A stretch of DNA of 64,000 nt, from the NCBI GenBank assembly GCA_017302655.1, contig JAFLDE010000002.1:21993-85992 (forward strand), given 5' to 3'. The position numbers and the translations under genes were made by a program. Of this stretch, positions 3,315 to 52,967 are shown in pieces. The notes beneath the pieces were generated by a model. That model was given only the letters and a program-made list of their open reading frames with translations, was not told where the DNA came from and did not search any database. How positions within the stretch are numbered: position 1 is the stretch's first letter; every line of letters begins with the position of its first letter. This stretch comes from Burkholderiales bacterium (GTDB lineage: Bacteria; Pseudomonadota; Gammaproteobacteria; Burkholderiales; Burkholderiaceae_C).

Positions 3315-3349
3315 GTCGATCGTGCCTTTCAAGGAAAAGGGAAAGCCTC

Positions 3350-5365: not shown

Positions 5366-5596
5366 ATGGAGCCGACCTTGAGAATCCCTTTGCGCAGCTT
5401 GTCTGTCGTGCTGTTGGCCGTCGTCGGCCTGTCCGGTTGCATCATCATTCCGGCCCACCGACATCATGGCCCACCGCGTGGCGTCGTCGTCATCGAGAGC
5501 CCGCACGCGCACGGGCATGGCCACCGCGGCGGACGGCACCCCGGTCGGGGCGACGGAGGCTACGACCAGCGCGGCTTCGGTCCATACCGCCGCTGA
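5366..5596 (+). CDS. Small His/Gly-rich lipoprotein
   Basis: Signal peptide ending in lipobox LSG-C, then PAHRHHGPPRG...HAHGHGHRGG. Confidence 0.65.
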   Translation: MEPTLRIPLRSLSVVLLAVVGLSGCIIIPAHRHHGPPRGVVVIESPHAHGHGHRGGRHPGRGDGGYDQRGFGPYRR

Positions 5597-5599
5597 CGC

Positions 5600-7490: not shown

Positions 7491-7605
7491 GGCCGCCAGT
7501 CTGCCATCTGGGTCCTGGCGATCCCAACCCCATTCGAGCCGGTTATGGGTCGCGCGAAGGCTGCTATGTCTCCGACCCCAGCCAGCCACGTAGCCTTCGC
7601 CCCCG

Positions 7606-10750: not shown

Positions 10751-11677
10751 CCAGGGGTCGCGCGACTCGCCACCGAATGATTCCAGCAGGAAGTCGATGA
10801 AGGCCTTCGTGCGCATGGGCAAGTACTTGCGCGTAGGCATGGCCACATAAAGCATGTACTGACCCAGGTTCCAGTCGCAGAGCACGCGTTCGAGCTGACC
10901 CTTGCGCAGATCCTCCTGCACCTGGAAGGACAGCGTGGCCGCGATGCCCAGGCCCGCGCGGGCCGCCGCCAACAGCACATCGACCGAGTCCGAGCCCACG
11001 CTGCAGGGCTTGCAGGGCACGTGCACGGAAGGCGGCCCCGGGTGGCGTTCGGCATCGCGGCGGCGCAGCGTCCAGCCTTCGGCCACGTTGGCAAAGCTGG
11101 GCACCAGCACCTCGTGGGCCAGCAGGTCCATCGGCTCCGTCGGCCGGCCGTGCTGGTCGAGGTAAGCAGGGGTCGCGCAGAGCACGATTTCGGCCACCGC
11201 CAACTGGCGGGCCACGAAGTCTCCGTCCAGCGGTTGCTGCCCCACGGCCAACAGCGTCAAATCCGCGTGATCCTCAGGGGCCTGCGTGTGCGGCGCACCG
11301 CACAGGAACAGTTCCACACCCGGATACCGGGCACGGAAGGCGGGCAGCAACGGCACGATGAGCTGTGCGAGCAGCGGCGCCGGCCCCGCCAGGCGCAGGC
11401 TGCCGCGCACCTGGCTCACGGTCTCGGCAGCCAAGGCATTGGCCTCCTCCAGGTCGAGCACGATTTGCCTTGCGCGTTCCAGGTACTGCGCGCCCACGGC
11501 GGTGAGCGTCAGCTTGCGCGTGGTGCGGTGCAAGAGCCGGGCGCCCAGGCTTTGCTCCAGGTCGGAGACCAGCCGCGTGACACCGGCGGGCGCGAGATCC
11601 AGGGCGCGCGCAGCCGCCGCGAAGCCACCGTGGTCGACCACCGCGATGAAGACCTTGAGGGCGCGAAGTTGATCCAT
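10730..11677 (-). CDS. LysR family transcriptional regulator (CrgA/DmlR-like)
   Basis: MDQLRALKVF...GGFAAAARAL HTH, RLLHRTTRKLTLT, substrate-binding domain; AT-rich divergent intergenic region 11678-11820. Confidence 0.95.
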   Translation of the reverse strand: MDQLRALKVFIAVVDHGGFAAAARALDLAPAGVTRLVSDLEQSLGARLLHRTTRKLTLTAVGAQYLERARQIVLDLEEANALAAETVSQVRGSLRLAGPAPLLAQLIVPLLPAFRARYPGVELFLCGAPHTQAPEDHADLTLLAVGQQPLDGDFVARQLAVAEIVLCATPAYLDQHGRPTEPMDLLAHEVLVPSFANVAEGWTLRRRDAERHPGPPSVHVPCKPCSVGSDSVDVLLAAARAGLGIAATLSFQVQEDLRKGQLERVLCDWNLGQYMLYVAMPTRKYLPMRTKAFIDFLLESFGGESRDPWLPAQGA

Positions 11678-39081: not shown

Positions 39082-40002
39082 ATGCCGACGGCTGGCGACA
39101 ATGCCCGCTCGATGACCCCCGATCTCTCCAAGGCCCTGCTCAACCCCCAGCTCTGGCGGCTGGAAGCGGCGCGCCGGCGCCGGCAGTTGGAGGATCTGCA
39201 GACTTTCCTTGCCACGCTCGAGCGCGAATACGCGCAACTCGAAGCGCAGGTGCGCGGCTTTGAGGAGCGTTATGGGGCATGGCTGGGTCGCGGCTGGGCG
39301 CAGGTCGAGACCTTGCAAGGGGAGTTGCTGCGCGCACTCGAGGTCTTGGCCCGAGCGGGCGGCAATCAGCCGCCGTCACCGCCCCCGCAGCGTCGGCGTC
39401 AAGCGCTGCCCGAGTTGCCGGCCGCCCTGCCCTTTCCTGCACCACCGGCCAGCGAACTGGCCAACAGCGCGCCCACGCTCAAGGAGTTGCACCGCCGCGC
39501 GGCCATGCGCCTGCATCCCGACCGCGCCCACGATCCAGCCGACCGCGAACGTCGCGAGGCGCTGATGCGCGACGCCAACCTCGCCTACGCAGATGCCGAC
39601 CGCGCCACGCTGGAAGCGCTGCTGATCGCCTCCGGCGAGAGCCCACAGCGCCTGGGCGGCTTCGATGTACACGCCCATTGGCGCTGGCTCGAACGCTGCG
39701 AGCACATCGCCCAGGGCCGCCTGCGCGTGCTGCGCGCTCACCTGGTGCTGCTGCGCCAGCACCCCTTGACCGTGCTCGCCGAGGCCGTGGAACGCGCCGA
39801 AGCGCGAGGCCTGGCGCCGCTGGCCGTCATGGCTGCCCGGCTGGCTGCCCAGCAGCAGGAGCTGCAGCAGCAGCTCTACATCGGTGCGCGCCTTCAGCCC
39901 GGCTCGGCGCTATCGGCGGCCTTTCTCGCGCAGTGGCAGCAGCGCTGGGGCGCCGAGCCGCCGCCAAAGTTCGCCCAACCCAGCTGCCTGTCAGGCTCTT
40001 GA
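39082..40002 (+). CDS. Coiled-coil protein with central J-domain-like (HPD) segment
   Basis: LKELHRRAAMRLHPDRAHDPADRERREALMRDANLAY; flanking heptad-rich helices. Start may be ATG 39112. Confidence 0.75.
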   Translation: MPTAGDNARSMTPDLSKALLNPQLWRLEAARRRRQLEDLQTFLATLEREYAQLEAQVRGFEERYGAWLGRGWAQVETLQGELLRALEVLARAGGNQPPSPPPQRRRQALPELPAALPFPAPPASELANSAPTLKELHRRAAMRLHPDRAHDPADRERREALMRDANLAYADADRATLEALLIASGESPQRLGGFDVHAHWRWLERCEHIAQGRLRVLRAHLVLLRQHPLTVLAEAVERAEARGLAPLAVMAARLAAQQQELQQQLYIGARLQPGSALSAAFLAQWQQRWGAEPPPKFAQPSCLSGS

Positions 40003-42891
40003 GCCGGCGCGTCCGCCACGGCGCAAGCTCAGCCAGCCCAGTCCCAGCAACAGCAGGCTCGCTGCATCCGGCTCAGGCACCGCGCTCACGCTCAGCACCC
40101 CGTCGATCAGCAGGCGCGAGCGGTCCCAGACCCACCCCGCCCGCAGACTCGGTAGATCCAGCAAGCCGAACTGGCCGTCCAGACTGCCGAAGTCCAACAG
40201 GTCGAAGCGATCACCCGGTCGGGCGCTGAAGCCTTCGGCGAAAGTCACGGACAACGCTCCGCCGCGGAGGCTGAGGCGTCCGGAAACCCGCAACGCGTCG
40301 TGGCCGCTGCCAGCCTGCAGCCCGCCCACCTCCATGAAGAGGGTCTGAGCACCTAGCGTCGCCTCGCCGTCGATCGATAGCAGGCTGGCGCCTTGGCCCG
40401 TTCGCAGATCGCCCTCGAAGAAGAAGGCGCCGCCGCCGGTGAATGCGCCATCCCCCTGCACATTCCCGAAGAACACCATGGTGTTTCCCTTGCTGGCGCG
40501 CATCTCCAGGCCGTTGTGCAGCAGGTCGCCGAACAGGGTCAGCGTCGCGCCGCCCGAGACCAGCACGCGGCCGTCCTTGGCGTTGTCCATGGTGGTCACC
40601 AGATCGGTGTCGTCGCTGAAGGCCAGCAGCCCTTCGTTGCGCAGCGAGCCGGCCTCTACCAGGCCGCGCCCACCCAGTGTGGCGCCGGCGCCGTTCAGCA
40701 GCTTGCCATCCACCTGCAGCGCCCCGCCCAGCACCAGCAGCGATCCTTCGTTGTCCAGCGCACCGTCGAGCTGCAACAACTGGCCCGCGCCGACGCGCAC
40801 CTGCCCCTGCTTGGCGTTCTGCAGCGAGCCGCTGAGCAGGCCTTCGCCCTGCAGGCGCCCCTCGTTGAGCAGGCTGCCCACCTCGATGCGCGCCCCGCCA
40901 GGCTGCATCTGCAGCGTGCCCTGGTTGCGCAGGCTGCGTGCGGCCAGTCCGTCGCCTGACACGCTCAGCAGCCCAGCGCTCACCACTTCGAGGCTGCCCA
41001 GCACCTCCACGCGGCGTTCGGCGCTCAGTGCCAGCGAGGCCCCCAGCAACCCACCGCTGCCCACCACCAGCGTGTCACGCGTGAGTCCCAGCACGCCGCT
41101 CTGGAAGCTGAAGCGCCCGGCACCTTGCAGGCCCCCCAGGTTCAGGCGCCCGCCGTCCAGCGTCAGGTTGGACAGTGGCGCGAGTTGCAGGATGCCGTCG
41201 ACGCTCAGCTGACGGCCATGGCTCAGTGTCAAGCTGTTGCCCAGCAGCGCTGTGCTGCCCAGCGCCAGATCGCTGCGCACGCGCAGATACCCATGCTCGA
41301 AGTCGAGCGTCCCCGTGAAGCCGTCGATGCGCCCTACGTCGAGCGTGCCGCCGGACAGCGTCACCGTCACCGGTCCGCTGCTGCGCAACGCGCCCGTAAC
41401 GGCCAGCGTCGCCTCGCTCTCGATGGCCACAAGCGTGGAGAAGGTGACTCCGGAGCCGGAAAAGCCCGAGAGCTCGGCATCGCCATTGACCCGCCAGGCA
41501 CTGCCTGCACCGGTTAGCAGCACATTGGCACTGCCCGTACCGACCTGCATATCGCCGCTGGTGAGCACCGAGCCCGACTCGATGCGCAGATCGACCACAC
41601 CCTGGCGGCCCGCAATCACTCGGCCCGCCTGCAAGCTGGCGCCGTTGCGCATCAAGAGCTGCGAGCCGTTGGGCACGTAGTTGCAGAACGGCACGCAGCC
41701 CCCGTCCGGGACCGAAACGAAGTAAAGCGTCCCCACCTGCATGTGCCCGTCGTCGAGCGTGATGCGCGCCACCGACTCTGAGCGGTTCGCCACCTCCAGG
41801 TCGCCGGCGATGGTCCAGCGTCCGTCCGAGCGGATATCGACGGTGGCGGCCGCATTGCGGCTGCCCAATACGCGAGCGCCGGCGCTGTTCAGCTGCCCGC
41901 CCTCGGACACCTCGAGCGCGCTGCCCCCGCCCACCACCGACATCGCTCCCTCCACGCGCACCGCGCCGCCGGCCACATGGAAATGCCGGCTCGCACTGGG
42001 CGTGGTGATCGAGGAAAAAGTCGCCGGCCCCACCGACAGGCTGCCCAACTCCACCACACCGCCACGCTCCACCGCCACCGTGGCGCTGCCCCGCGCAACG
42101 CCCCCATAAATGGCTTCCATGAACAGTTGCTGCGCGCGCAGGGTGCCGCCATCGCCCACCGTCAGGCGGGCGACTTGGTTCTGCTCGGTCATGGTGATCG
42201 TGCTGGCATGCAACACCCCACCGGAGCGGATGTCCACCGTGGCGTGACCGCTGCGCGCCAGCGACAGCTGGCCGGCGTCGAAGTAGCCGCTGTTTCGCAG
42301 GGTCAGTGCGCCCTCGCCGAACGACTCCCCGATGACGCTGCGCTGGGCCGAGGCGGCGCCGCCGTCAATGTCCAGCAAGCCGCTGTAGCCCGTGCCGACC
42401 TGGATCTGCTGCACCGACAGACGCCCGTCGTCCGCCACACGCAGGGTGGCCAGCCGGGCGCCGGCCACATCGAGCGTCGGCGCCGACAGCTCCGAGCCCG
42501 CCCCCAGGTGCAGGGTGCCCGCATCGTTCACCCAGACCCGCCCCGAGGACTGCATCAGGCCCTGCTGCAACTCGATGCGACCGGTCTGCACATCCACATC
42601 GCTGTTGACGAACCAGTCGTTGAACTCCAGGTTCACCGTGGTGTTGCCGGCCAGCACGGCCAGCCCGGCCGTGTAGGCGCGGCTCGAGACATAGACGAAG
42701 GAACCAACCGCCGCATTGAAAACCACACGATCGAACTCTGAGGGAACCCGCCCGCCCTGCCAAGCACCCGGATCGAAAAAGTCGCCATCGTCGCCCAGCC
42801 AGGCAACGTCAGCGGCACCAGCGGGGGCCAGCAGGAGGGCCGCAGCCAGGGCCACTGCAGGGCGGCGAAATCGTGTCGTGAGTAGGCGCAT
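39991..42891 (-). CDS. Large secreted beta-strand-repeat protein with C-terminal PEP-CTERM sorting signal
   Basis: Signal peptide; Gly-rich passenger-like beta repeats; C-terminus VPEPDAASLLLLGLGWLSLRR. Confidence 0.88.
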   Translation of the reverse strand: MRLLTTRFRRPAVALAAALLLAPAGAADVAWLGDDGDFFDPGAWQGGRVPSEFDRVVFNAAVGSFVYVSSRAYTAGLAVLAGNTTVNLEFNDWFVNSDVDVQTGRIELQQGLMQSSGRVWVNDAGTLHLGAGSELSAPTLDVAGARLATLRVADDGRLSVQQIQVGTGYSGLLDIDGGAASAQRSVIGESFGEGALTLRNSGYFDAGQLSLARSGHATVDIRSGGVLHASTITMTEQNQVARLTVGDGGTLRAQQLFMEAIYGGVARGSATVAVERGGVVELGSLSVGPATFSSITTPSASRHFHVAGGAVRVEGAMSVVGGGSALEVSEGGQLNSAGARVLGSRNAAATVDIRSDGRWTIAGDLEVANRSESVARITLDDGHMQVGTLYFVSVPDGGCVPFCNYVPNGSQLLMRNGASLQAGRVIAGRQGVVDLRIESGSVLTSGDMQVGTGSANVLLTGAGSAWRVNGDAELSGFSGSGVTFSTLVAIESEATLAVTGALRSSGPVTVTLSGGTLDVGRIDGFTGTLDFEHGYLRVRSDLALGSTALLGNSLTLSHGRQLSVDGILQLAPLSNLTLDGGRLNLGGLQGAGRFSFQSGVLGLTRDTLVVGSGGLLGASLALSAERRVEVLGSLEVVSAGLLSVSGDGLAARSLRNQGTLQMQPGGARIEVGSLLNEGRLQGEGLLSGSLQNAKQGQVRVGAGQLLQLDGALDNEGSLLVLGGALQVDGKLLNGAGATLGGRGLVEAGSLRNEGLLAFSDDTDLVTTMDNAKDGRVLVSGGATLTLFGDLLHNGLEMRASKGNTMVFFGNVQGDGAFTGGGAFFFEGDLRTGQGASLLSIDGEATLGAQTLFMEVGGLQAGSGHDALRVSGRLSLRGGALSVTFAEGFSARPGDRFDLLDFGSLDGQFGLLDLPSLRAGWVWDRSRLLIDGVLSVSAVPEPDAASLLLLGLGWLSLRRGGRAGSRA

Positions 42892-43103: not shown

Positions 43104-44231
43104 TCAACGGAAAGGCGTTCGAGCCACCAACTCTGCCTCGTATACCTGCACGGCGGCTTGTTCCTGCACGCTGAAGCGCCGCACCGCATCGGCGAAGCGA
43201 TCGTCGGCCAAGCAATGGAAGCTGTGGGTGGCCACCGGCAGCAGGCCCCGCGCCATCTTGTGCTCGCCCTGCGCGCCGCCCTCGAAGCGCTGCGCTCCTT
43301 CGGCGAGGCACCAGACCAGCGGCGCGTAATAGCAGAGCTCGAAGTGCAGGGAGCGAATCTCGCGCAGGCAGCCCCAGTGGCGGCCGTAGAGCACGCCGCG
43401 TTCGGCGTCCCAGGCGCACAGGCTGGCCGCCACGCGTTCGCCATCCAGCTCCGCGCTGAACAGCAGCCACTCCACCCCGCACGCGGCGAAAAAGTCATCG
43501 GCCAGATAAGGCGTCTGCCCGCGCACCGCGTAAGTGGCGGCGTAGCAGCGTGCCCAGAAGGCCCAATCCGCCGCGCCGATCTCGTGGCCGCGCTGCACCC
43601 TCATCTGAGCGCCCGACTCGCGCACCTGGCGGCGCTCCTGCAGGATCTTCTTGCGCTTGTCGGCCCGCAAGCTGGCCAGAAAGTCCTCGAAGCTGGACCA
43701 CGCCGGCTGACGCTGCCAATGAAACTGCGGCTGCTCGCGCCGCGCCCACTCGTTCGCGGGCATGGCGGCGGCATCGGCGGCGCTGCCGAACAGCAGGTGC
43801 AAGCCGCTCAGCCCCAGTTCGCTCGCCAGCAACGGCAACTGCCTCACCAGCGTGGCACGCGCCAAATCGTCCTCGGCCAGCAACCGACTGCCCGGCACCG
43901 GTGTGAAGGGCACGGCCAGCACGCCCTTCGGGTAGTAGCGCAGCCCATGCTGGGCGTAGGCGCGCGCCCAGGCCTGGTCAAACACGTACTCGCCCCAGGA
44001 ATGCGCCTTGATCCACAGCGGCGCGGCGGCGCACAGGCGGTCGCCCGCCTCCAGCAGCACGAAGCAGGCCTGCCAGCCGCTTTCGGCCACCGCACTGCCG
44101 CTGGCCTGCAACTGCTGCAAAAAATCCCGGCGCATGAAGGGGGTCGGCGCATCCTGCCGCGCCAGCAAGTCATCCCACGCGTCCGGCAGCGAAGCCAGGT
44201 CTTGCACGCAGCGCAGTTGAAACCTCGACAT
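43104..44231 (-). CDS. FemAB-like / DUF482 GNAT-fold protein
   Basis: KAHSWGEYVFDQAWA, YYPKGVLAVPFTPVPG, LYGRHWG, HFELCYY, FEGGAQGEHKMARG. Confidence 0.9.
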   Translation of the reverse strand: MSRFQLRCVQDLASLPDAWDDLLARQDAPTPFMRRDFLQQLQASGSAVAESGWQACFVLLEAGDRLCAAAPLWIKAHSWGEYVFDQAWARAYAQHGLRYYPKGVLAVPFTPVPGSRLLAEDDLARATLVRQLPLLASELGLSGLHLLFGSAADAAAMPANEWARREQPQFHWQRQPAWSSFEDFLASLRADKRKKILQERRQVRESGAQMRVQRGHEIGAADWAFWARCYAATYAVRGQTPYLADDFFAACGVEWLLFSAELDGERVAASLCAWDAERGVLYGRHWGCLREIRSLHFELCYYAPLVWCLAEGAQRFEGGAQGEHKMARGLLPVATHSFHCLADDRFADAVRRFSVQEQAAVQVYEAELVARTPFR

Positions 44232-44242
44232 GGGCCGGCATC

Positions 44243-44617
44243 ATGCCGGGCATGCTGTACCGCCTGGCCGCCGAGGGCATCTTGCTGCTGCACCTGGCGT
44301 TCATCGTCTTCGCCGTCGGTGGCGGCTGGCTGGCTCTGCGCTGGCGCCCGGTGCTCTGGCTGCAATTGCCGGCCTGTGCCTGGGCGGTGTGGATCATGGC
44401 CAGCGGCCGCATCTGCCCGCTCACGCCTTTGGAGAACCGCCTGCGCCAACTGGCCGGCGAGCAGGGCTACACGGGTGGTTTCATCGAGCACTACGTGCTC
44501 GCGCTGATCTACCCGGAGGGCATCACGCGCGAGGTGCAGATCGCCCTGGCCATGGTGGTCCTGGGCCTCAATCTGCTGGTCTGGGTGATCCTGCTGCGGC
44601 GCTCGCATCGCGCCTAG
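44243..44617 (+). CDS. DUF2784 family membrane protein
   Basis: LLLHLAFIVF...ICPLTPLENRLR...GYTGGFIEHYV..LIYP. Start may be ATG 44252. Confidence 0.85.
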   Translation: MPGMLYRLAAEGILLLHLAFIVFAVGGGWLALRWRPVLWLQLPACAWAVWIMASGRICPLTPLENRLRQLAGEQGYTGGFIEHYVLALIYPEGITREVQIALAMVVLGLNLLVWVILLRRSHRA

Positions 44618-44691
44618 GAACCGGGGCGGAAGCAGCCGCTCCGGCAAGCCGGTCTCTCGCCAAAACGACTGGCGATGCTTGGCACCCGGTG

Positions 44692-45153
44692 TCAGCTCTT
44701 GGCCATGCTCAGGCCTTCGTGCGAGACCACCAAGCTCTCGATGGCGAATTCGTTGCCACTGACCTTGAATTCACTGCTCTGCACCCTGCTGGGCCAGGCA
44801 TCGGCCAGGGTCCAGACCATGACGGCGGCGCCCGACTCGTCGAGCAGGCGGATGGTCAGCGGCTTGCGCTGGATGGTGGTCGTCTTGGCCTCGTTGAACC
44901 AGTCCCAGAACTGGCGCTCGCCCTTGAAGAGGCCGCGCTTCAGGGTCACGTCGCCGAACTTCTTCACGCCGGGCATCTTGAGCACCGAGAACTGCGGGCT
45001 GTTGCCCGCTCGGTATTCGATGGGCTGAGCCTCCATGCCGAGGCCGGAGACCTCCTGGAAACGCATCTCGGCGCCGCCCCACTGGACATGGAACTGGAAC
45101 TTGGGCTGCGGCCAGACGGCTTCACCGGAGCTGGGGGCAGATGGATCAGGCAT
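44692..45153 (-). CDS. T4-gp19-like tail tube protein (eCIS Afp1/5 type)
   Basis: PKFQFHVQW, FQEVSGL, IEYRAG, KMPG.KKFGDVTLKRG, FWDWFN, W.L.DAWP, AIESLVVSHEGL. Confidence 0.9.
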   Translation of the reverse strand: MPDPSAPSSGEAVWPQPKFQFHVQWGGAEMRFQEVSGLGMEAQPIEYRAGNSPQFSVLKMPGVKKFGDVTLKRGLFKGERQFWDWFNEAKTTTIQRKPLTIRLLDESGAAVMVWTLADAWPSRVQSSEFKVSGNEFAIESLVVSHEGLSMAKS

Positions 45154-45166
45154 GGCGCAACTCCTT

Positions 45167-46651
45167 TCAGGACACTTGCATGGGCTGCTGGAAGGTGATC
45201 TCGATGAACTCCGCCGGCCGGCTCACCGCCACCTGCACGGTGACCCGCAGGATCCCTTGCTGCACGTCTTCCGCAGTCATCGTCTCACCCAGTCCGCACT
45301 GCACGCTGAAGGCCTGCTCGGGCACTGCACCAGCCAGGCCACCCCGCTTCCACAGGATGGTGAGGAAGTCGCCGAGCATGGACTGGATCGCCACCCAGGT
45401 GTGGGCGACATGGGGCTCGAACACCAGCGCCTTGCAGGCGAGTCGGCAGCTCTCCTCCACCATCATCAAGGTTCGTCGCACGTTGACATAGCGCCCATCC
45501 AAGCTGTTGCCGTCCAGCGTGCGGGCGCCCCACACCAACACGCCCTCGCCGACGAAGCTGCGGATGGCGTTGATGCTCTGGCCCTGAGGGGACAGGTTCA
45601 GACCTTCCTGCTGTTCTTGCGAAACGGGCACCGCTGGCTTGACCACGCCGGCCACGCGGACATTGGCCGGCGCCTTCCACACGCCGCGCTCGTGGTCCAC
45701 CCAGGCGTAGACGCCGGCCATGGCGGCGCACGGGCCCAGGCGGTTCATCTGGCGGCAGATTTCGGCCATCAAGGCCCCGTAGGCGGGCGAACCGGCAATC
45801 AAGGCCTCGTGCAGTTCCGCGGCGCCTGCGGGCCTGGCCGTCTGGTCGCCGAGTTCGGCCGCATCAAGCAGCCGCTTCACGTCCTTGGAGGCCTGCGCAT
45901 CGGCGCGCACCATGGCTGCCACGGTGCCGGTCAGCGATGCGTGTTCGATGTGCCTCCAGTCGACCTCGTGCGGGTCAACGACCGTAGTGTCGAGGTAAGG
46001 GAAGTAGGCGGCACCGTTGATCAGCCCGGTCTGGCCCAGCCGCCTGCAGAAGTCGTTCACCGGGTCGCGCGGCGAGTCGAGTTCCTGGTCGCCGTTGGGC
46101 ACGTCGAGGATGGCAAAGCGCTGGCGCTGTCTCGCGTCCGAGCCTTGCCTCAGCATCTGCTGCTGCAAACCGATGCAAGCTTCAAGCGCCAACGACACGG
46201 CGTCGGGAACGACGAGCAGGCTCGATTCCCGCTCGCCCTGCAGCGCGGAGATTCCCCTCACCAGCGCTTCCTCCGAAGGTGCGTGGGTGTAGTCGCCCAC
46301 CGAGACGACCCAGCACGCTCCCCCGCCATTGGTGAAGTAATGGCGCATGCCGTGGTACAGGCGGAAGCGCGGACCGGTCTGCGCCACGGTGTAGCGCTGG
46401 GCGCCAACCCGAAAAGCGCCGTCAGCGGCCTCGGTGAGGCTGAAGCGAGCCGGAGGCGCACCGCCGAAGAAGCGCTCGAACTCGGCCATCGAGCCGATGC
46501 GCCAGGGCACGCCGAAAAGGGACTTGCCACCGTCCTCGGCTCTGGCGGTGTAGCCGATGAAGGCGGGCACCGCCGTGGCCACCTCGACCACCGCCCCGGC
46601 CAAAGGGTTCCTCTCGGCGATGTAGACGCCCGGGGTCTTCATGTCGCTCAT
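45167..46651 (-). CDS. Contractile tail sheath protein (eCIS Afp2/3/4 type)
   Basis: KTPGVYIAE, TAVPAFIGYT, RGVWKAPAN, WGARTLDGNS, YVNVRRT, LVFEP, RPAEFIEITFQQ. Confidence 0.92.
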   Translation of the reverse strand: MSDMKTPGVYIAERNPLAGAVVEVATAVPAFIGYTARAEDGGKSLFGVPWRIGSMAEFERFFGGAPPARFSLTEAADGAFRVGAQRYTVAQTGPRFRLYHGMRHYFTNGGGACWVVSVGDYTHAPSEEALVRGISALQGERESSLLVVPDAVSLALEACIGLQQQMLRQGSDARQRQRFAILDVPNGDQELDSPRDPVNDFCRRLGQTGLINGAAYFPYLDTTVVDPHEVDWRHIEHASLTGTVAAMVRADAQASKDVKRLLDAAELGDQTARPAGAAELHEALIAGSPAYGALMAEICRQMNRLGPCAAMAGVYAWVDHERGVWKAPANVRVAGVVKPAVPVSQEQQEGLNLSPQGQSINAIRSFVGEGVLVWGARTLDGNSLDGRYVNVRRTLMMVEESCRLACKALVFEPHVAHTWVAIQSMLGDFLTILWKRGGLAGAVPEQAFSVQCGLGETMTAEDVQQGILRVTVQVAVSRPAEFIEITFQQPMQVS

Positions 46652-46681
46652 GGCGGCACCTTCAGAGGTCGCGACGGATCG

Positions 46682-47788
46682 TCACTCACCTGCCGCCGGC
46701 AATCCATTCGCCACGGCGTCGGCGATGGCAGCGCCCACCTGCGCACAACTGGCGCTGCCGCTGAGGTCGGGCGTGCGCGGCGCGCGGGGGTCGGACAGCA
46801 CCTGCTCGATGGCGGCCAGCACGGCGTCGTGCGCAGCGCGGTGGCCCAGGAAGTCCAGCATCATGGCGCCGGCCCAGATCTGCCCGATGGGGTTGGCGAT
46901 GCCCTTCCCTGCGATATCCGGGGCCGAACCATGCACCGGCTCGAACAGGCTGGGCCAGCGCCGCGTCGGGTTCAGGTTGGCCGAGGGCGCGATGGCGATG
47001 GTGCCGGTGCAAGCCGGCGCGAGGTCGGAGAGGATGTCTCCGAACAGATTGCTGCCCACCACCACATCGAAATGGCCGGGCCGCTGCACGAAATGCGCGC
47101 ACAGGATGTCGATGTGGAACTGCTCCACCGTCACATCCGGGTAGCGCGCGGCCATGGCCTGCACCCGCTCGTCCCAATAGGGCATGGTGATGGAGATGCC
47201 GTTGCTCTTCGTGGCCGAGGTGAGCTTGCGTCGCGGCCGACTGGCGGCGAGTTCAAAGGCGAAGGCCAGCACGCGATCCACGCCGACACGGCTCATCACC
47301 GTCTCCTGAATCACCAGTTCCCGCTCGGTGCCGGCGAACATGCGCCCGCCGATGCTGCTGTACTCGCCCTCGGTGTTCTCGCGCACGATCCACAGGTCGA
47401 TGTCGCCGGGCTTGAGCGGCTCTCCCTGGCGGTTCACCAGCGGCGAACGCACGCCCGGCAGCAGGCGGGCCGGGCGCAGGTTCACGTACTGGTCGAACTC
47501 GCGGCGGAACTGGAGCAGCGAGCCCCAGAGCGAGACATGGTCGGGCACCGTGGCCGGCCAGCCGACCGCACCGAAGTAGATCGCATCGTGCCCGCCGATC
47601 TGCGTCTTCCAGTCCGGCGGCAGCATGCTGCCGTGGCGCTCGAAGTAAGCGCAGTGGGCAAAGTCGAATTCGTCGAACTGCAGTGCCAAGCCGAAGCGCT
47701 GCGCGGCGGCACGGAGCACACGCAGGCCTTCGGGCATCACCTCCTGGCCGATGCCGTCGCCGGCGATCACGGCAATGCGCTGCGTCAT
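46682..47788 (-). CDS. Tartrate / D-malate dehydrogenase (decarboxylating), IDH/IMDH family
   Basis: IAVIAGDGIG.EV, HVSLWGSLL..RREFDQYVNLRP, VRENTEGEYS, TSATKSNG, SNLFGDILSDL, FEPVHGSAPDI; ATGA overlap at 47785-47788. Confidence 0.92.
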   Translation of the reverse strand: MTQRIAVIAGDGIGQEVMPEGLRVLRAAAQRFGLALQFDEFDFAHCAYFERHGSMLPPDWKTQIGGHDAIYFGAVGWPATVPDHVSLWGSLLQFRREFDQYVNLRPARLLPGVRSPLVNRQGEPLKPGDIDLWIVRENTEGEYSSIGGRMFAGTERELVIQETVMSRVGVDRVLAFAFELAASRPRRKLTSATKSNGISITMPYWDERVQAMAARYPDVTVEQFHIDILCAHFVQRPGHFDVVVGSNLFGDILSDLAPACTGTIAIAPSANLNPTRRWPSLFEPVHGSAPDIAGKGIANPIGQIWAGAMMLDFLGHRAAHDAVLAAIEQVLSDPRAPRTPDLSGSASCAQVGAAIADAVANGLPAAGE

Positions 47789-48672
47789 TCGGACTCCTCG
47801 TTGAAGAAGGGCAGCGCCTCGGCCAGCAGCGCCTCGGGGGCTTCCTCGGCGATGTAGTGGCCACAGTCCAGCGCGCGGCCGCTCACGTTCGTGGCCGCGG
47901 CCTGCCACAACGCCAGCGGGTCGAAGCACCTTGCCACCACACCCTTCGCGCCCCAGAGCACGCGCAAGGGTTGAACCAGCCGCCGGCCAGCCGCCCGGTC
48001 GGCGCGATCGTGTTCAAGGTCCACCCCGGCACTGGCGCGGTAGTCGCTGCAGATGGCCTGGGCACTGCCGGGGCGTGCGATGCAGCGCGCGTACTCGGCC
48101 CAGGCTTCCGGAGCGAAAGCGTCCGAGCCCGCCAGGCGTCGACCCACGCTTTCGCGCAGATAGGCCGCCGGGTCGGCCTCGATCAAGCGCTCGGGCAAAG
48201 GCGCCGGCTGAATGAGGAAGAACCAGTGCCAGTACGCCCGCGCGAAGGCCTCGCCGGTGGCCTCGTACATCGCCAGCGTGGGTGCGATGTCGAGCAGCAT
48301 GGCGCGCGAGACAGCATCGGGGTGGTCGAGCATCAGGCGGTGGGCCACGCGAGCGCCACGGTCGTGCGCCAGCACCGCAAAGCGCTCATGACCGAGGCTG
48401 CGCATCAGGTGCAAGGCATCTCGCGCCATCTCGCGCTTGCTGTAAGCCGCGTGCCCAGGTCCCGGCTCAGGTCGACCGCTGTCGCCATAGCCCCGCAGGT
48501 CCAGCAGGATGACGCGATGCTGCCGCGCCAAGCGCGGCGCCACGCGATGCCACATCGCCATGGTCTGCGGATGCCCATGCATCAGCAGCAGCGGCGACCC
48601 CGCGCCGCCTTGCCGCCACACCAGTTCCACGCCATCCCGTTGAAGGCGTCGGCGATCGAAGTCTTGCCACAT
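47785..48672 (-). CDS. Alpha/beta hydrolase, haloacetate (fluoroacetate) dehalogenase-like
   Basis: LLMHGHPQT, AHDRGARVAHRL (Asp nucleophile + 2 Arg), AYWHWFF, SDYRA, CGHYIAEE. Confidence 0.85.
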   Translation of the reverse strand: MWQDFDRRRLQRDGVELVWRQGGAGSPLLLMHGHPQTMAMWHRVAPRLARQHRVILLDLRGYGDSGRPEPGPGHAAYSKREMARDALHLMRSLGHERFAVLAHDRGARVAHRLMLDHPDAVSRAMLLDIAPTLAMYEATGEAFARAYWHWFFLIQPAPLPERLIEADPAAYLRESVGRRLAGSDAFAPEAWAEYARCIARPGSAQAICSDYRASAGVDLEHDRADRAAGRRLVQPLRVLWGAKGVVARCFDPLALWQAAATNVSGRALDCGHYIAEEAPEALLAEALPFFNEESE

Positions 48673-48766
48673 GGGCAGGGATTGTGGCGAGAGGCTTCAG
48701 AGATCGCCGGACCGGCGATCGGGTACGCCTCCAACTTCAGGAATGGCGCACTGCGGGGTCAGAGGC

Positions 48767-50173
48767 CTAGAACCACCAGGGTGCAGGATGACCGTTGCTG
48801 ACCAGGAATACCTGCTGTCGGTAAAAGCGCTGAATGCTCTGCGCGCCCATGCGGGTACCGCCAAGGCCGGACAGACCGAAGCTCTGCTTTGCGCCCTCAT
48901 GCACAAGCGCGGTGAGCGAGCAGTCGTTGATGGACACCGCGCCCGCCCGCAGGGCAGAGGCCACACGGCGGGCGCGTTCGACATCCGCACTGAAGACGGC
49001 GCCGCTGAGGCCGTACTCGCTGTCGTTGGCCAAATGCAAGGCCTCGGCTTCATCGGCGAACGCCTGCAGGGGAAGGATGGGACCGAAAGTCTCCTCGCGC
49101 ATGACACGCATGCTCGGCTTCACGTCCACCAGCACCGTCGGTTGGCACCAGATGCCGCCGCCGTGTTCAACGAGGCGCCCACCGCACAAGGCGCGGGCAC
49201 CCTGTGCAAAAGCGTCGTCAAGCTGCGCCTGAATCAGCCTTGCCTGAGCCGCTGCAATGACGGGACCGATGTGGCCCTCACGCGGGTCGGACGTGTTCAG
49301 GCCCAAAGCTGCTACCCGCTCGGTCAAGAGCTGGGCAAAGGCTTCAAAGACCGGCTGCTGCACGTAGCAGCGCTCCAGCGACATGCAGCTTTGCCCGGCA
49401 TTGACCATGCTGCCCCAAGCCAGCGATCGCGCGGTGCGTGGCAGGTCGGCGTCGGCAAAGACCAAGGCGGCGTCCTTGCCACCCAGTTCGAGCTGTGCCG
49501 GGATGAAGCGCCGCGCCGCCTGTTCGGCCACCTTGCGGCCGGTGGCCATGCTGCCGGTGAAGGCGATGGTGTCGACGCAGTCGATCAGGGCCTGACCGGT
49601 GGCGCCGGCACCGGTCACGAAGTCGATGGGCAGCTCGGACGTCAAGCCTGCCAAGCTGGCGCGCAGGGGTTCGACGAAGCGCGGCGTGATCTCGCTCGGC
49701 TTGACGAGCACCGCGCAGCCCGCCATCAAGGCCGGGATGGCGTCGATCAGGGAAAGCAGCAGCGGGAAGTTCCAAGGGCTGATGACGCCGACCAGCGGAT
49801 AGGGCTGCATGCCCTGCTCGATCGTGAGGAAGGGAATCGAGGCACGTTGCTGGCTCGGCGCCAGCAGGCCTGGCCCCTGGGAAGCCCAGCGCGCCAGGGA
49901 TGCGGCGCAGGCCTGGATCTCCAGCAAGCCTTCTTGCCAGCGGCCGGTGTCGGCCAGCAAGGCTTCGGCCAGAGCAGACTCCTGGCCCAGCAAGCGCTCG
50001 CGCCAGGCCAGCAGGGCCTCGGCTCGCTGTGGCGCCGTCCGCGCCGCCCACGCAGGCTGGCGTGCACGCAGTTGCGCGGCCACTGCAGCCACTTCTGTGG
50101 CGTCGTGCACAGGCATGAAGTGGTCCAGCCGGCCTGTGCGCGGATTGCGCGTGTTCGGCAGCGCCTCAGTCAC
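48767..50173 (-). CDS. NAD(P)+-dependent aldehyde dehydrogenase
   Basis: ISPWNFP, KPSEITP, FTGS, LELGGKD, GQSC, EETFGP. GTG start 50173 overlaps the upstream stop. Confidence 0.93.
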   Translation of the reverse strand: MTEALPNTRNPRTGRLDHFMPVHDATEVAAVAAQLRARQPAWAARTAPQRAEALLAWRERLLGQESALAEALLADTGRWQEGLLEIQACAASLARWASQGPGLLAPSQQRASIPFLTIEQGMQPYPLVGVISPWNFPLLLSLIDAIPALMAGCAVLVKPSEITPRFVEPLRASLAGLTSELPIDFVTGAGATGQALIDCVDTIAFTGSMATGRKVAEQAARRFIPAQLELGGKDAALVFADADLPRTARSLAWGSMVNAGQSCMSLERCYVQQPVFEAFAQLLTERVAALGLNTSDPREGHIGPVIAAAQARLIQAQLDDAFAQGARALCGGRLVEHGGGIWCQPTVLVDVKPSMRVMREETFGPILPLQAFADEAEALHLANDSEYGLSGAVFSADVERARRVASALRAGAVSINDCSLTALVHEGAKQSFGLSGLGGTRMGAQSIQRFYRQQVFLVSNGHPAPWWF

Positions 50174-51206
50174 GGCGAAGCACACCCCGCGTCAGCAGCT
50201 TCTCGATGCTGGCCCGCTGCTGCTCCAGGAAATGGGCGCGACCGGGAACCTGCAACTCACCATCCTTGAGCATGCTGTTCGGGCTGACCACGCTGTCCGC
50301 GTACTGCGCGGCGAACAACTCCAGGCGCTGGCGCGCCAGCAGATTGCCCATGCCCGGCTTGAGCCGCTGGCGGCGCAGGGCTGCGATGTCGATGACGGCG
50401 TGGGCGACCATGCTCTCACCATAGCCGGCCTCGGCCCGCACCTCGCCCAGGGGGTCGACGATCTTGCTCATGCCGTCCACGGACTCGCCGGGGATGTCCA
50501 CGTCGACGATGCCCGCCGAGTTGGCGCTCACCACCCAGCAACTGTTCTCGTAGGCACGCGCGCGCTTGGCCACATCCTTGGGGGTGAAGCGCGGGCTGGC
50601 CACTTCGGAACTGCTGTGCAGCAGCACCTCGGCACCGCGAAGCGCTAGGCCACGAGCAATCTCCGGGTAGAGGATTTCCTCGGACGCGACGCAGCCCAGG
50701 CGGCCGAGCGGCGTGTCAGCGACCGGGAAGACACCTTCGAGCCCGTACAGCTCCAGGTACCGGTCCCAGACATCGTGCGGCGTGGGCGCAAACAGCGAGA
50801 CCAGGCGGCGGTAGCGCAGCACGCAGGCGCCTTGGTCGTCCAGCACGAAGCTGGTCTGGAAGTAGAGACCGGGAAAGTGAGCGTCGGTCTCGTACACATT
50901 GCCACTGAGGTAGACACCCGCCTGCCTTGCGACCTGGCCGAGCAGCTCGTACTCGACCCCGTCGGGCGCCAACGCCGCCTTGCTCGCCCAAGCCGGCAAC
51001 GCGTCACCCAGCGGGTAGCCGCTCAGGAAGTACTCGGGCAGCACCACCAACTTCAGGTCGGGGCCGATGAAGGCCTTGGAGCCCAGCACCTGACGCCCCA
51101 CGCGTTCGATGTTGGCGCGCATGCGCTCCCGCGCCTCGGCGTCGCTGACACAACGGTTGACGGCGTGACACCGGGTTTGCAACGCGAGGGCGGTATAGGC
51201 GCTCAT
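50166..51206 (-). CDS. Nitrilase / carbon-nitrogen hydrolase fold protein with atypical triad
   Basis: VVLPEYFL; YFQTSFVLD; YRRL; GCVASEEILYPE.ARGLALRGAEVL; RARAYEN..WVVSAN. Confidence 0.82.
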   Translation of the reverse strand: MSAYTALALQTRCHAVNRCVSDAEARERMRANIERVGRQVLGSKAFIGPDLKLVVLPEYFLSGYPLGDALPAWASKAALAPDGVEYELLGQVARQAGVYLSGNVYETDAHFPGLYFQTSFVLDDQGACVLRYRRLVSLFAPTPHDVWDRYLELYGLEGVFPVADTPLGRLGCVASEEILYPEIARGLALRGAEVLLHSSSEVASPRFTPKDVAKRARAYENSCWVVSANSAGIVDVDIPGESVDGMSKIVDPLGEVRAEAGYGESMVAHAVIDIAALRRQRLKPGMGNLLARQRLELFAAQYADSVVSPNSMLKDGELQVPGRAHFLEQQRASIEKLLTRGVLRRD

Positions 51207-51209
51207 GGT

Positions 51210-51890
51210 TCAGAAGGGCTTGACGGCGCCAAAGTAGGCGACGGTGGCAATGGACACCCAGTACACATAAGCGATGTTGCGGCCGAAGCGGATGCTCTTG
51301 TCCAGCTTGGCCTCCACGTCGGCGTTGGGGCCCTGTGCCAGCAGGCGGAACATGGCCGTCCACTCCCGCATGATGAAGCGCAGCTTCAGGCCAATGATCA
51401 GCGTCCAGGCGTACACGAGCATCTTGGCCGCGTACCAACGCGTGCCCGGATCGGCCACCAGCGGGCCATGCCCCATCAAGGACGCGATGCTGACGAGGAA
51501 CAGCAGCGGGATCAGCACGAAGCGCACGCTCTCGTCGACCTTCGTCAGGCGAACGCCGGTGTCGGTCTCACGCTTGATGAAGGCGCCCCAGCACAGGCCC
51601 AGCCACAGCGCCGTGAGCACCCACATGCCAGTTAGCCAAGCGCCGCCCAGGGGCTGCAGATTCCACAAATGCCCCATGTGCAGGCCCAGGGGCAGCAGCA
51701 GGATGATGCCGGTGCGGGCCAGGATGTCGATGCGGTAGGCCGTCTCCATGTGGCGACGGCGCTCGTCCAGCGGCAGCTTGCGGTTGATGACGTTGTAGGA
51801 GGTCTGGAATACCCCCCACTCGCCACCCAACCAATAGACCATGCAGATGATGTGCAGCCAGCGCAGCACGGCGAGCTCGTTGAAGTCCAT
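51210..51890 (-). CDS. Uncharacterised multi-pass membrane protein
   Basis: About 6 hydrophobic helices (WLHIICMVYWLGG...), GAGAG RBS-like sequence, first gene after the leftward sigma54 promoter. Confidence 0.8.
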   Translation of the reverse strand: MDFNELAVLRWLHIICMVYWLGGEWGVFQTSYNVINRKLPLDERRRHMETAYRIDILARTGIILLLPLGLHMGHLWNLQPLGGAWLTGMWVLTALWLGLCWGAFIKRETDTGVRLTKVDESVRFVLIPLLFLVSIASLMGHGPLVADPGTRWYAAKMLVYAWTLIIGLKLRFIMREWTAMFRLLAQGPNADVEAKLDKSIRFGRNIAYVYWVSIATVAYFGAVKPF

Positions 51891-51922
51891 GTGGGCTCTC
51901 GATTCAGCGGATGCCGTGCGGC

Positions 51923-51938
51923 TGCAAGACCTGTGCCA
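51923..51938 (-). promoter_or_regulatory. Sigma54 -24/-12 promoter (leftward operon)
   Basis: Minus strand TGGCAC-AGGTC-TTGCA; GG-N10-GC spacing exact; 32 nt upstream of ATG 51890. Confidence 0.85.
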
Positions 51939-51957
51939 TTCGGTCGGCGGCCCTCGA

Positions 51958-52006
51958 TGTTTCAACATGGAACGCATCGGGCAGCATCTGAAACCGACTT
52001 GAAACA
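51958..52006. promoter_or_regulatory. Candidate enhancer (UAS) for a PrpR-like sigma54 activator
   Basis: Imperfect palindrome TGTTTCA-ACA-TGGAACG (51958-51974) plus TGAAAC (51989) and TGAAACA (52000) half-sites between the two sigma54 promoters. Confidence 0.5.
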
Positions 52007-52025
52007 CTCGGCGCAGCCCATCACT

Positions 52026-52041
52026 TGGCACGCCGATTGCA
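52026..52041 (+). promoter_or_regulatory. Sigma54 -24/-12 promoter (rightward operon)
   Basis: TGGCAC-GCCGA-TTGCA; GG-N10-GC exact; AGGAG RBS and ATG 52080 follow. Confidence 0.88.
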
Positions 52042-52079
52042 CCAAGCCCTGAGCTCACCAACGCTCAGGAGACTCAGGC

Positions 52080-52967
52080 ATGCGCCCCCATGTGGAATTG
52101 ATCGACGAGAAGGACCTCATCTGGCACGTGGCCGAGTTGCCACATGGCGTGGGCGCGGCACGCCAGCGCCATCTGAACTACTGTGAAGAGAAGGGTGAGG
52201 CCTCGCTGTCCGTCGAGTTCACCAGCGACTGGAGCCGCCCGGCGGGCTGCCATGCGGCCCAGACCGAGTGGTTCGTCCTCGAAGGCGAACTCACGCTGGG
52301 CGAGCAGGCCATGACCAAGGACGACTACTTCATGGCGCCGGCCGGTGTGCTCACGCCGGCGCTGCATGTGAAGGCAGGCACCCGCGTGCTGCTCTTCCGC
52401 GAGTTCGGCGACTGGGGCTTCACGCCCGCCAGTCAGAGCGAAAAGGAGGGCGAATTGGTGGTCATGCGCGCCAGCCAGATGGCTTGGTTCGACATCACCG
52501 ATCCGCACAACGGCAGCCCGATGGACTTCAGCCGCGGCGGCACCCCGGTGCCAGGCCTGAGCATCAAGCTGCTGTATCACAACAAGCAGACGGGCTTCTA
52601 CACCCGGCTGATTCGCGCCAAGGCCGACTGGGTGGAGCATCCGCTGGCCCACCACCCCTGCTATGAAGAGGCCTACTGCCTGGATGGCAGCTTTGAGTAC
52701 AACTACGGCTCGATGTGGCCGGGCACCTACTTCTTCCGGCCGGCCGGCGTGCGTCACGGCGACTTCAAGAGCGGGCCCACCGGCACCACCTGGCTGCTGC
52801 GATGCGACGGCCGCCTGGTGGACTGGTACACCGAAGGCGCCCGCGTGGAAATGCAGGGCAAGGCGCTCAACTGGGGCCCGGAGTACCCCGGCACCGAGCC
52901 GCCCGTGCTGCTGCAACCGACCCGTAGCCGCTCGATCGGTCCGATGAAAGACCCGGCCTACCAGTGA
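52080..52967 (+). CDS. Bicupin protein (DUF4437 / ChrR-like)
   Basis: Two cupin barrels; EWFVLEGEL in the first, HHPCYEEAYCLDG and YFFRPAGVRHG in the second. Confidence 0.75.
   Translation: MRPHVELIDEKDLIWHVAELPHGVGAARQRHLNYCEEKGEASLSVEFTSDWSRPAGCHAAQTEWFVLEGELTLGEQAMTKDDYFMAPAGVLTPALHVKAGTRVLLFREFGDWGFTPASQSEKEGELVVMRASQMAWFDITDPHNGSPMDFSRGGTPVPGLSIKLLYHNKQTGFYTRLIRAKADWVEHPLAHHPCYEEAYCLDGSFEYNYGSMWPGTYFFRPAGVRHGDFKSGPTGTTWLLRCDGRLVDWYTEGARVEMQGKALNWGPEYPGTEPPVLLQPTRSRSIGPMKDPAYQ

Follow-up and report, generated by a model that had tools for sequence, protein, structure and literature searches.

An isolated SalCIS-like sheath and tube gene pair in a Burkholderiales genome, probably left over from a complete injection-machine operon

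The window, a stretch of 64,000 nucleotides from a Burkholderiales genome, carries adjacent, intact genes for a contractile sheath and an inner tube. Searches of the whole genome for the sheath, tube, baseplate, spike, and cap components of a contractile injection system (CIS) matched these two genes and nothing else, and annotation of a sheath and a tube does not imply a working CIS. We consider it probable that the pair is all that remains, as one contiguous piece, of a complete SalCIS-like operon, and that it is now in slow decay.

The gene pair and its surroundings

The coordinates of the genes and the intervals between them are listed in Table 1. The earlier note had described an intact sheath gene of 494 aa and an intact tube gene of 153 aa, 13 nt apart and flanked by DUF2784 and dehydrogenase genes, and the open reading frames were exactly as described. 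Its label "Afp-type" had to be replaced, as the pair is closer to SalCIS, AlgoCIS, and tCIS, which have a single sheath, than to Afp/PVC.

Table 1. Features of the sheath-tube locus in the window
Feature	Coordinates	Strand	Description
DUF2784 gene	44243-44617	+	Convergent with the tube gene
Spacer 3' of the tube stop	44618-44691	-	74 nt; faces the convergent DUF2784 gene
Inner tube gene	44692-45153	-	153 aa, intact; gp19/Cis1-type (tube1)
Sheath-tube spacer	45154-45166	-	13 nt; AAGGAG Shine-Dalgarno at 45161-45166; direct sequence reading
Sheath gene	45167-46651	-	494 aa, intact; single-sheath SalCis2-like
Junction from tartrate dehydrogenase stop to sheath ATG	46652-46681	-	30 nt; GAAGG at 46659-46663
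Tartrate dehydrogenase gene	46682-47788	-	TIGR02089, 526 bits vs cut-off 470; upstream same-strand neighbour; gene limits from same-species locus L051

The sheath protein matched the Pfam profiles PF04984 (E 2e-8) and PF17482 (E 5e-8), each above its gathering score, and aligned over its full length with the solved SalCIS sheath 9r9h_T (E 1e-143, residues 2-493, 53% identity). This full-length collinear homology includes both donor-strand termini (N-terminal MKTPGVYI and C-terminal RPAEFIEITFQQ) and places the protein in the SalCis2-like family. We then compared it with 63 sheaths from complete clusters at the 211 columns that are near-invariant, that is, at least 90% conserved across these sheaths. 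The window sheath kept 171 columns and departed at 40 (~19%), whereas the complete-cluster sheaths departed at a median of 3 and a maximum of 34. Among the changed residues are four in the N-terminal linker (A16P, F17L, P18A, and S20A) and two at the C-terminal end (Q490P and K493V); in SalCIS, the C-terminal end of the sheath pairs with the gp25-like initiator (PMC13266070). The salt-bridge residues of the SalCis2 X-loop were dropped as a test, since this insertion is missing from the nearest complete clusters as well.

The tube protein matched PF06841 (E 9e-42) and TIGR02241, as well as the SalCis1 structure chain 9r9h_B (E 3e-51), and shared 67% identity with tube1 from the nearest complete cluster. 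It departed at 12 of 66 near-invariant columns (~18%), compared with a median of 0 and a maximum of 8 for complete clusters. In two complete clusters, tube1 was 100% identical although the sheaths were just 74% identical, and the window tube was 67% identical to both.

Around the pair lie genes for catabolic enzymes, for DUF2784, and for a FemAB-like protein, and defence genes are absent beside it. As the earlier note had stated, the sheath gene starts 30 nt past the dehydrogenase stop on the same strand with no terminator in between; the sequence bears this out, and no intrinsic terminator was predicted between the genes. A hairpin in the junction scored z -2.1 but is not followed by a T-run. 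Further upstream, the tartrate dehydrogenase gene overlaps the preceding alpha/beta-hydrolase gene by ATGA. The 30-nt gap, the absence of a terminator, and this overlap are consistent with co-transcription of dehydrogenase, sheath, and tube, as far as the sequence can indicate. Both the sheath and tube genes retain their own ribosome-binding sites. The 13-nt spacer is the same in all same-species samples and resembles that of cluster L013 (AAGGGGATGAGCC), and the 74-nt spacer, in which a hairpin was not significant (z -1.65), differs among the strains of this species both in its length and in its sequence. No remnants of neighbouring cluster genes, including tube2, were found in the 30-nt and 74-nt boundaries by tblastn, profiles, or sequence comparison. 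The GC content of the pair (0.64-0.67) and its GC3 (0.86-0.88) equal those of the genome, which points to a long-standing resident rather than a fresh fragment.

Search of the genome for the remaining components

We searched the draft assembly (4.43 Mb, 203 contigs, 99.96% complete) for the components of a working CIS. Sheath and inner tube were present, and gp25, baseplate, spike/PAAR, and cap, adaptor, and initiator were not found. The gp25-like sheath initiator PF04965 was absent genome-wide in a search in which the controls gave matches, and a profile from 66 clusters was also negative. Baseplate_J (PF04865) was likewise absent genome-wide, but this absence is weak alone, since no Pfam match is recorded for the large baseplate protein in the reference clusters; tblastn and custom profiles were therefore added, and the large baseplate protein (1238 aa) gave no match in the whole genome by tblastn or with a 58-sequence profile. 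The VgrG spike was not found in the genome by tblastn or profiles, and the best match for PAAR had an E value of only 0.2. Profiles from 67-74 clusters for the cap/terminator (Pvc16_N, DUF4255), the tube2/Cis5 adaptor, and the LysM-type tube initiator (PF19266) found none of these in the whole genome; the one match among them was cross-recognition of the single tube gene.

When the 16 proteins of the nearest complete cluster were compared with the genome by tblastn, the sheath and the tube were matched and nothing else. The same outcome was obtained with custom HMMs built from ~60-80 complete clusters (cap, unk240, tube2, LysM-tube, VgrG, PAAR, gp25, large baseplate protein, and unk306), for which the sheath and tube genes were the sole matches among 57,017 six-frame ORFs. 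The flanks covered for the reference clusters did not include an AAA+ ATPase gene (Cis15/Afp15-type). The genome contains no second sheath or second tube gene. The claim that the pair stands without baseplate, spike, and cap is thus upheld genome-wide by Pfam, tblastn, and custom profiles.

Two other assignments of the pair were considered and rejected. A type VI secretion system (T6SS) does not fit, as there is no gp25-like (TssE) or VgrG gene and the sheath belongs with those of phages and eCIS rather than with VipA/B. For a contractile prophage or R-type tailocin, the gp25/W and J baseplate genes do not adjoin the pair.

Related loci and selection on the pair

The nearest sheaths, P0007 (65% identity) and P0008 (61%), both lie in full clusters with the same gene order. 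This order is cap, 240-aa protein, sheath, tube1, tube2, DUF5908, LysM-tube, VgrG, PAAR, gp25, and large baseplate proteins, and the window pair has the order from sheath to tube1 and the short spacer seen in its complete relatives. A full cluster is also present in a genome of the same family (G013). As tblastx synteny in a genome of 68% GC was mostly noise, high-identity blocks alone were used. Judged from these sequence comparisons, the pair almost certainly descends from a complete SalCIS-like cluster.

A survey of other genomes, which the earlier note had proposed for isolated sheath-tube pairs, gave 11 intact orphan sheaths in several lineages, including two orphan clades with support of 98-99. 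Of 62 SalCIS-like sheath loci for which 8 kb or more of downstream sequence was available, 60 were complete. The orphan count covers context-checked loci only, since taking the absence of gp25 as the mark of an orphan gives 25 of the 68 single-sheath genomes in the order, which is an over-count, several of these being other phage types or atypical clusters. The orphan sheaths departed at 8-63 near-invariant columns, an excess over complete-cluster sheaths (Mann-Whitney p 6e-7). On this sequence measure, the strong excess of changes that orphaned sheaths carry at sites invariant in complete systems is a usable rule. No partner or neighbour gene common to the orphan loci was found when one was looked for, and literature searches on orphan or remnant sheath-tube pairs returned nothing specific.

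Within the genus, the locus forms a series: the pair in the window species, a sheath only at the same site, an 82-aa fragment, and nothing. The lone sheath of G002 lies directly beside the orthologous FemAB gene, and a tube is absent from that genome; the fragment, in G006, has an internal stop; in eight other genus members the site is empty. The earlier note had allowed that the missing eCIS genes might adjoin the pair in close relatives, and this is not so in the same species or genus. The sheaths of the window, G002, and the metagenomic P0010 form one group (SH-aLRT 98), and those of the window and G002 have derived changes in common, e.g., W386G. The end branches of the three are long (0.52, 1.19, and 0.40, vs a median of 0.11). 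The G002 and P0010 frames are nevertheless intact, which would be difficult to explain if function had been lost completely for so long. Another genome with an orphan sheath, G212, resembles G002 in lacking gp25 and any tube. In genus g22, two species carry an orphan sheath and tube, with a dN/dS of 0.21 for each gene at dS 0.3-0.4. Between the g22 tube and sheath genes is a variable interval with a Schlafen-like helicase and an M78 peptidase, a defence-island-like cargo.

We also evaluated selection on the window pair in nine samples of the same species, of which two were genomes and seven were metagenome contigs. The tube frame was open in 9/9 samples, and the sheath frame was open in all parts that were read. 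Pooled polymorphism comprised 18 synonymous and 26 non-synonymous changes, corresponding to a pN/pS of ~0.46, below 1 (binomial p 0.01), compared with 0.16 in the flanking genes (Fisher p 0.001). Pooled polymorphism was used because the pairwise sheath dN/dS between the window and L051 (0 synonymous, 1 non-synonymous) was uninformative owing to mosaic divergence in the region; dN/dS against the nearest complete clusters was unusable, as synonymous sites are saturated at 61-65% amino acid identity and a GC3 of ~0.87. The pair is under clearly weakened yet non-zero purifying selection, ~3-fold weaker than that on its neighbours, and not at the dN/dS near 1 with which the earlier note had associated a relic.

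Origin of the pair and comparison with known systems

The following course of events is proposed for the loss of the operon. The ancestral full operon would have lain beside the FemAB-like gene in the ancestor of the lineage. Deletions or replacements on both sides, whose order we infer, may then have removed all other operon genes; the 30-nt junction would be the upstream deletion or rearrangement boundary and the 74-nt spacer the downstream one. The pair now stands between a catabolic island ending in the tartrate dehydrogenase upstream and DUF2784 and FemAB downstream. Read-through from the upstream operon probably still yields a transcript of sheath and tube1, and both are probably translated. 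Lacking baseplate, spike, tube initiator, and cap, they cannot build or fire an injection machine, and the pair presumably has no role in the cell. Its decay would be slow, with many normally invariant residues changed and the frames still open. A relic had been among the options of the earlier note, and it is the best supported one, by the complete-cluster relatives, the loss series in the genus, and the excess of changes at conserved sites; the decay, however, is non-neutral. Observations counted against a relic are the open frames, also those of G002 and P0010, the pN/pS below 1, the dN/dS of 0.21 in g22, the good ribosome-binding sites, and boundaries no more than 30 and 74 nt away from the ends of the genes.

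A baseplate-free polymer with a new role had also been suggested. It is possible, but we found no positive evidence for it, and the lack of a partner gene common to the orphan loci does not help it. Such an exapted module, in which sheath and tube are selected for a baseplate-free function, e.g., as self-assembled filaments, is a doubtful though serious alternative; the filaments could have a structural, storage, or stress-related role and be expressed with the catabolic operon. The intact frames and the pN/pS of 0.46 in nine samples, the g22 dN/dS of 0.21 for both genes, the 11 intact orphan sheaths with their two supported clades, the Shine-Dalgarno sequences kept in both genes, and the fully ameliorated composition all agree with it. 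So does the SalCis16b (cap adaptor) deletion mutant of SalCIS, in which low-energy sheath assemblies arise from free SalCis2 away from the baseplate and the tube also polymerises (PMC13266070). However, at residues invariant in working systems the window proteins deviate more than any complete-cluster homologue compared, the closest orphan-sheath relatives have no tube (G002 and probably P0010) or lack the whole gene, a conserved partner gene or context is absent, and constraint is three times weaker than in the neighbouring genes. The apparent special retention of sheaths is itself an ascertainment effect, because the orphans were found by searching with sheath queries. A broader version, that leftover SalCIS-like sheaths with or without tube1 have been weakly selected long-term in several Burkholderiales lineages (the window species, G002 and P0010, genus g22, and G212) because they still self-assemble into baseplate-free filaments not used for injection, seems to us unlikely.

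It is very improbable that the products act in interference, poisoning the tails of incoming contractile phages or tailocins by co-assembly or exploiting phage baseplates as decoys. The weak but non-zero selection and the defence-island-like cargo of the g22 loci would suit such a role, but the window pair has catabolic enzymes and not defence genes as neighbours, its proteins are distant from the phage types, and no precedent was found in the literature searched. The earlier note had further proposed a satellite that swaps into a complete eCIS elsewhere. For this genome the proposal is refuted, and a spare part for any eCIS, tailocin, T6SS, or prophage tail in the cell can hardly be credited: a 99.96%-complete assembly is without gp25, Baseplate_J, VgrG, PAAR, cap, tube initiator, and a second tube or sheath; the same lack of gp25 and tube in G002 and G212 also speaks against it, and the analogy with orphan Hcp/VgrG islands of T6SS is its sole support.

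We favour descent by loss from a complete operon. As a relic, the pair is an ordinary outcome of genome erosion, yet it offers a clean, datable case of the dismantling of a ~20-kb injection-machine operon. What remains odd is that several independent orphans have kept open frames, with dN/dS values of 0.2-0.5. Should the proteins be shown to be expressed and to assemble, this would point to a use of sheath and tube that does not depend on a baseplate, which to our knowledge has not been described so far.

The closest solved system to the pair is SalCIS of Salmonella enterica subsp. salamae (PDB 9R9H/9R9I/9R9N/9RCE; Ejaz et al. 2026, PMC13266070). Compared with it, the window genome is without cap, cap adaptor, Cis5-type tube2, LysM-tube, VgrG, PAAR, gp25-like initiator, cage/baseplate, and membrane protein. 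AlgoCIS (PDB 7ADZ) and Anabaena tCIS (PDB 7B5H), single-sheath systems of clade Ib, took second and third place among the solved structures for both proteins, with E values of 5e-90 and 6e-86 for the sheath and of 3e-43 and 5e-47 for the tube. Their sheath matches cover mainly the C-terminal half, and unlike the window pair both are complete machines. Afp of Serratia entomophila and PVC of Photorhabdus belong to the same fold families, with Afp1/Pvc1 matching the window tube at E 1e-20 to 1e-21 and Afp2-4/Pvc2-4 matching the C-terminal domain of the window sheath at E 1e-39 to 1e-52; they have three sheath paralogues of 350-450 aa, whereas the window has one sheath of 494 aa from another clade. 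Pyocin and T4 sheaths matched at E 1e-6 to 1e-3, with partial coverage only.

Defective prophage or tailocin remnants and orphan Hcp/VgrG islands are likewise isolated contractile-machine genes amid unrelated chromosomal genes. Orphan Hcp/VgrG genes serve a complete T6SS of the same cell, so that these islands have their machine in the cell, whereas the window genome has none. Typical pseudogenised prophage remnants differ in another respect, as both frames of the window pair are intact and under weak purifying selection.

The sheath-tube pair and its surroundings

Both ORFs of the earlier note were confirmed at their positions (table below). The two genes are separated by 13 nt, with AAGGAG within the spacer. 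The sheath ATG, preceded by GAAGG, lies 30 nt after the stop codon of a same-strand tartrate dehydrogenase gene (TIGR02089 match above cut-off). The tartrate dehydrogenase and alpha/beta-hydrolase genes overlap by ATGA, and aldehyde dehydrogenase and CN-hydrolase genes come before them on this strand. Downstream of the pair, a convergent DUF2784 gene is followed by a FemAB-like gene. The flanks described previously, DUF2784 and a dehydrogenase 30 nt before the sheath, were both found. The lack of a visible terminator before the sheath also held: no intrinsic terminator was predicted around the pair on its strand within 44000-52500, and folding of both pair boundaries gave no convincing one. 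Judging from the spacing and terminator absence, the pair probably shares a transcript with the upstream catabolic operon, with sheath and tube probably translated from their own ribosome-binding sites. The GC and GC3 of the pair equal the genome values, indicating that it is an old resident.

Features of the window and of compared loci
Feature	Location	Coordinates	Strand	Description
Sheath gene	window	45167-46651	-	494 aa; both tail-sheath Pfam domains above cut-offs
Tube gene	window	44692-45153	-	153 aa; strong gp19/Cis1-type tube, E 9e-42
966-aa ORF	window	39991-42891	-	no Pfam match
DUF2784 and post-tube spacer	window	44243-44691		divergent between strains
tube1	L013	11520-11981		complete cluster
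tube1	L015	5731-6192		complete cluster
Tandem repeat	L018 (G002)	11285-11344		GGCAAGTACC x3
Orphan tube and sheath with cargo	L019 (g22)	4986-10062		convergent genes
Orphan tube and sheath with cargo	L029 (g22)	1774-5409		convergent genes
Sheath, then VgrG fragment	L067	11743-12600		Burkholderiales MAG

Within the species, strain divergence across DUF2784 and the post-tube spacer (dS 0.29; spacer of 74 versus 96 nt) was far above that of the adjacent sheath (0 synonymous differences), indicating that a recombination mosaic boundary coincides with the tube gene end. The 966-aa ORF is an insertion that separates the FemAB-like gene from the H+-pyrophosphatase side; it is 99.7% identical in the same-species genome and 90% identical in the related genome G002, and is missing at that site in the other eight genus members.

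Isolation in the genome and origin from a complete cluster

The assembly (4.43 Mb, 203 contigs) is rated 99.96% complete. No match to gp25 (PF04965) or Baseplate_J (PF04865) was obtained in the whole assembly, whereas control genomes matched, and no paralogue of either gene was detected in it. When 16 proteins from the nearest complete cluster served as tblastn queries, the sheath and tube were the sole matches. Profile HMMs of eleven components, built from about 60-80 complete clusters, likewise matched only the sheath (E 1e-196) and tube (E 2e-62) among 57,017 six-frame ORFs. These results indicate that the pair is alone genome-wide and not merely locally, upholding its description as a stand-alone pair without baseplate, spike, or cap.

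The closest sheaths in a 5.8-billion-protein collection (65% and 61% identity) both lie inside complete clusters, in the order Pvc16_N cap, 240-250-aa protein, sheath, tube1 (153 aa), tube2, DUF5908, CIS_tube, VgrG, PAAR, gp25, and large baseplate proteins. The full cluster is also present in one genome of the same family. Of 80 SalCIS-like sheath loci taken from species-representative genomes, 62 had a downstream flank of 8 kb or more, and 60 of these were complete clusters. The pair matches the neighbouring sheath and tube1 genes of such a cluster and is similarly spaced. In the two nearest complete clusters, L013 and L015, the tube1 proteins are 100% identical although the sheaths share only 74% identity, an unusually strong conservation of the inner tube; the window tube reaches only 67% identity to them, a further sign of weakened constraint.

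Loss series, weakened constraint, and remaining selection

Across ten other species of this genus, synteny reaches the FemAB-like gene and ends there. In G002, an intact 477-aa sheath directly adjoins the orthologous FemAB gene, and no tube gene was found anywhere in the genome. In G006, only an 82-aa C-terminal sheath piece is present, carrying deletions and an internal stop, and the remaining eight species have no sheath or tube at the site. The window and G002 sheaths have derived substitutions in common at otherwise invariant sites (e.g., W386G) and, with the metagenomic sheath P0010, form a supported clade (SH-aLRT 98) sister to complete-cluster sheaths. Its end branches are 0.52, 1.19, and 0.40 versus a median of 0.11. 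A histidine kinase flanks P0010, and no tube start follows its sheath. A tandem repeat lies directly upstream of the G002 sheath.

Elsewhere in the order, we found sheath-only loci (G212, L112, L103, and L134), a second sheath-tube pair (L086), and two species of one genus (G031 and G187) in which variable cargo separates sheath from tube. Since the sheath was the search query, the seeming preference for sheath retention is an ascertainment effect. In L067, a SalCIS-like sheath is directly followed by the N-terminal 350 residues of VgrG, with both tube genes and the one for the LysM-tube deleted; this locus is another intermediate of cluster decay. Across the order, 25 of 68 genomes with a single Phage_sheath_1C match had no PF04965 gp25 match anywhere; among those inspected, several carried true orphan sheaths and others phage or atypical types. 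Two g22 species have a convergent orphan tube and sheath that enclose differing cargo (M78 peptidase and Schlafen-like helicase in one species, a pair of unknown 452-460-aa ORFs in its counterpart), and this interval looks like a variable insertion hotspot, possibly defence-related. In three species of one genus (L030, G054:C3; L031, G109:C1; and G325), a sheath that shares 34% identity with the reference is directly followed by VgrG and PAAR, with no PF04965 gp25 or PF06841 tube in their genomes; these may be atypical or reduced CISs with unrecognised parts.

Near-invariant sheath columns (211) were defined from 63 sheaths with verified complete context. Complete-cluster sheaths departed at a median of 3 columns (maximum 34) and eleven orphan sheaths at 8-63 (Mann-Whitney p 6e-7); deriving the columns from the complete set slightly favours that set, but the gap far exceeds this bias. 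The window sheath departed at 40 columns, above every complete-cluster sheath (24/185 versus a mean of 2.1 in an earlier version with 116 database homologues), and the tube at 12 of 66 (59 complete clusters: median 0, maximum 8). Some of the substituted sheath residues map to the N-terminal linker that follows the first donor strand, others to the very end of the C-terminus. The sheath C-terminus of SalCIS pairs with a gp25-like initiator (PMC13266070), and the C-terminal changes may be tied to such a partner no longer being present.

The same arrangement occurs in a second same-species genome (98.1% nucleotide identity over 21.5 kb) and, across different samples, in seven metagenome contigs. 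All of these have an open tube frame, and the sheath parts read are likewise all open. Pooled variants (18 synonymous, 26 non-synonymous) gave a pN/pS of ~0.46, below neutrality (binomial p 0.01) and roughly threefold that of flanking genes (0.16; Fisher p 0.001-0.004). The g22 orphan sheath and tube gave dN/dS values of 0.215 and 0.212 (dS 0.31-0.43), and two flanking genes 0.03 and 0.17. Intact frames in G002 and P0010, despite their very long branches, agree with this. These results indicate that some protein-level selection persists and that decay of the pair is not neutral. On the dN/dS check proposed in the earlier note, the pair is less constrained than its flanks, and its pN/pS is not 1.

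Interpretation and relation to known injection systems

In contractile systems, the extended sheath is built on baseplate and tube and stabilised by the cap. SalCIS mutants show the same dependence, and without baseplate, tube, and cap the sheath protein gives only low-energy assemblies (PMC13266070). We favour, with moderate confidence, the reading that the pair is a remnant no longer able to form an injection machine, in which loss of the other cluster components would have left only sheath and tube. The decay series and site changes favour the relic option raised earlier, with the qualification that selection on the pair is not neutral. The persisting selection may be due to a role, residual or new, or only to the purging of harmful variants of proteins still made. 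The main rival reading, in which a baseplate-independent function such as filament formation keeps this pair and orphans like it in place, is possible but doubtful.

Anti-phage interference by the pair has little or no support, and we regard it as very unlikely. Satellite use, for which support is equally slight, is the most improbable: the proposed module swapping into a complete eCIS elsewhere is contradicted by the genome-wide lack of other cluster components and was ruled out for this genome. No paper dealing with a stand-alone sheath-tube pair turned up in the literature searched. The case is mostly ordinary genome erosion; the point of note is that orphaned sheath and tube genes remain under weak purifying selection.

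Among solved structures, the best matches are to SalCIS from Salmonella enterica subsp. salamae (PDB 9r9h): SalCis2 for the sheath (E 1e-143, full length) and SalCis1 for the tube (E 3e-51). These are followed by AlgoCIS and Anabaena tCIS, with Afp and PVC much more distant, so the original label "Afp-type" was imprecise. A distinct cluster of single-sheath CIS operons is described in the SalCIS paper (PMC13266070). The sheath and tube of the window add new members to an already known CIS clade, and their locus represents a known system in degraded form.
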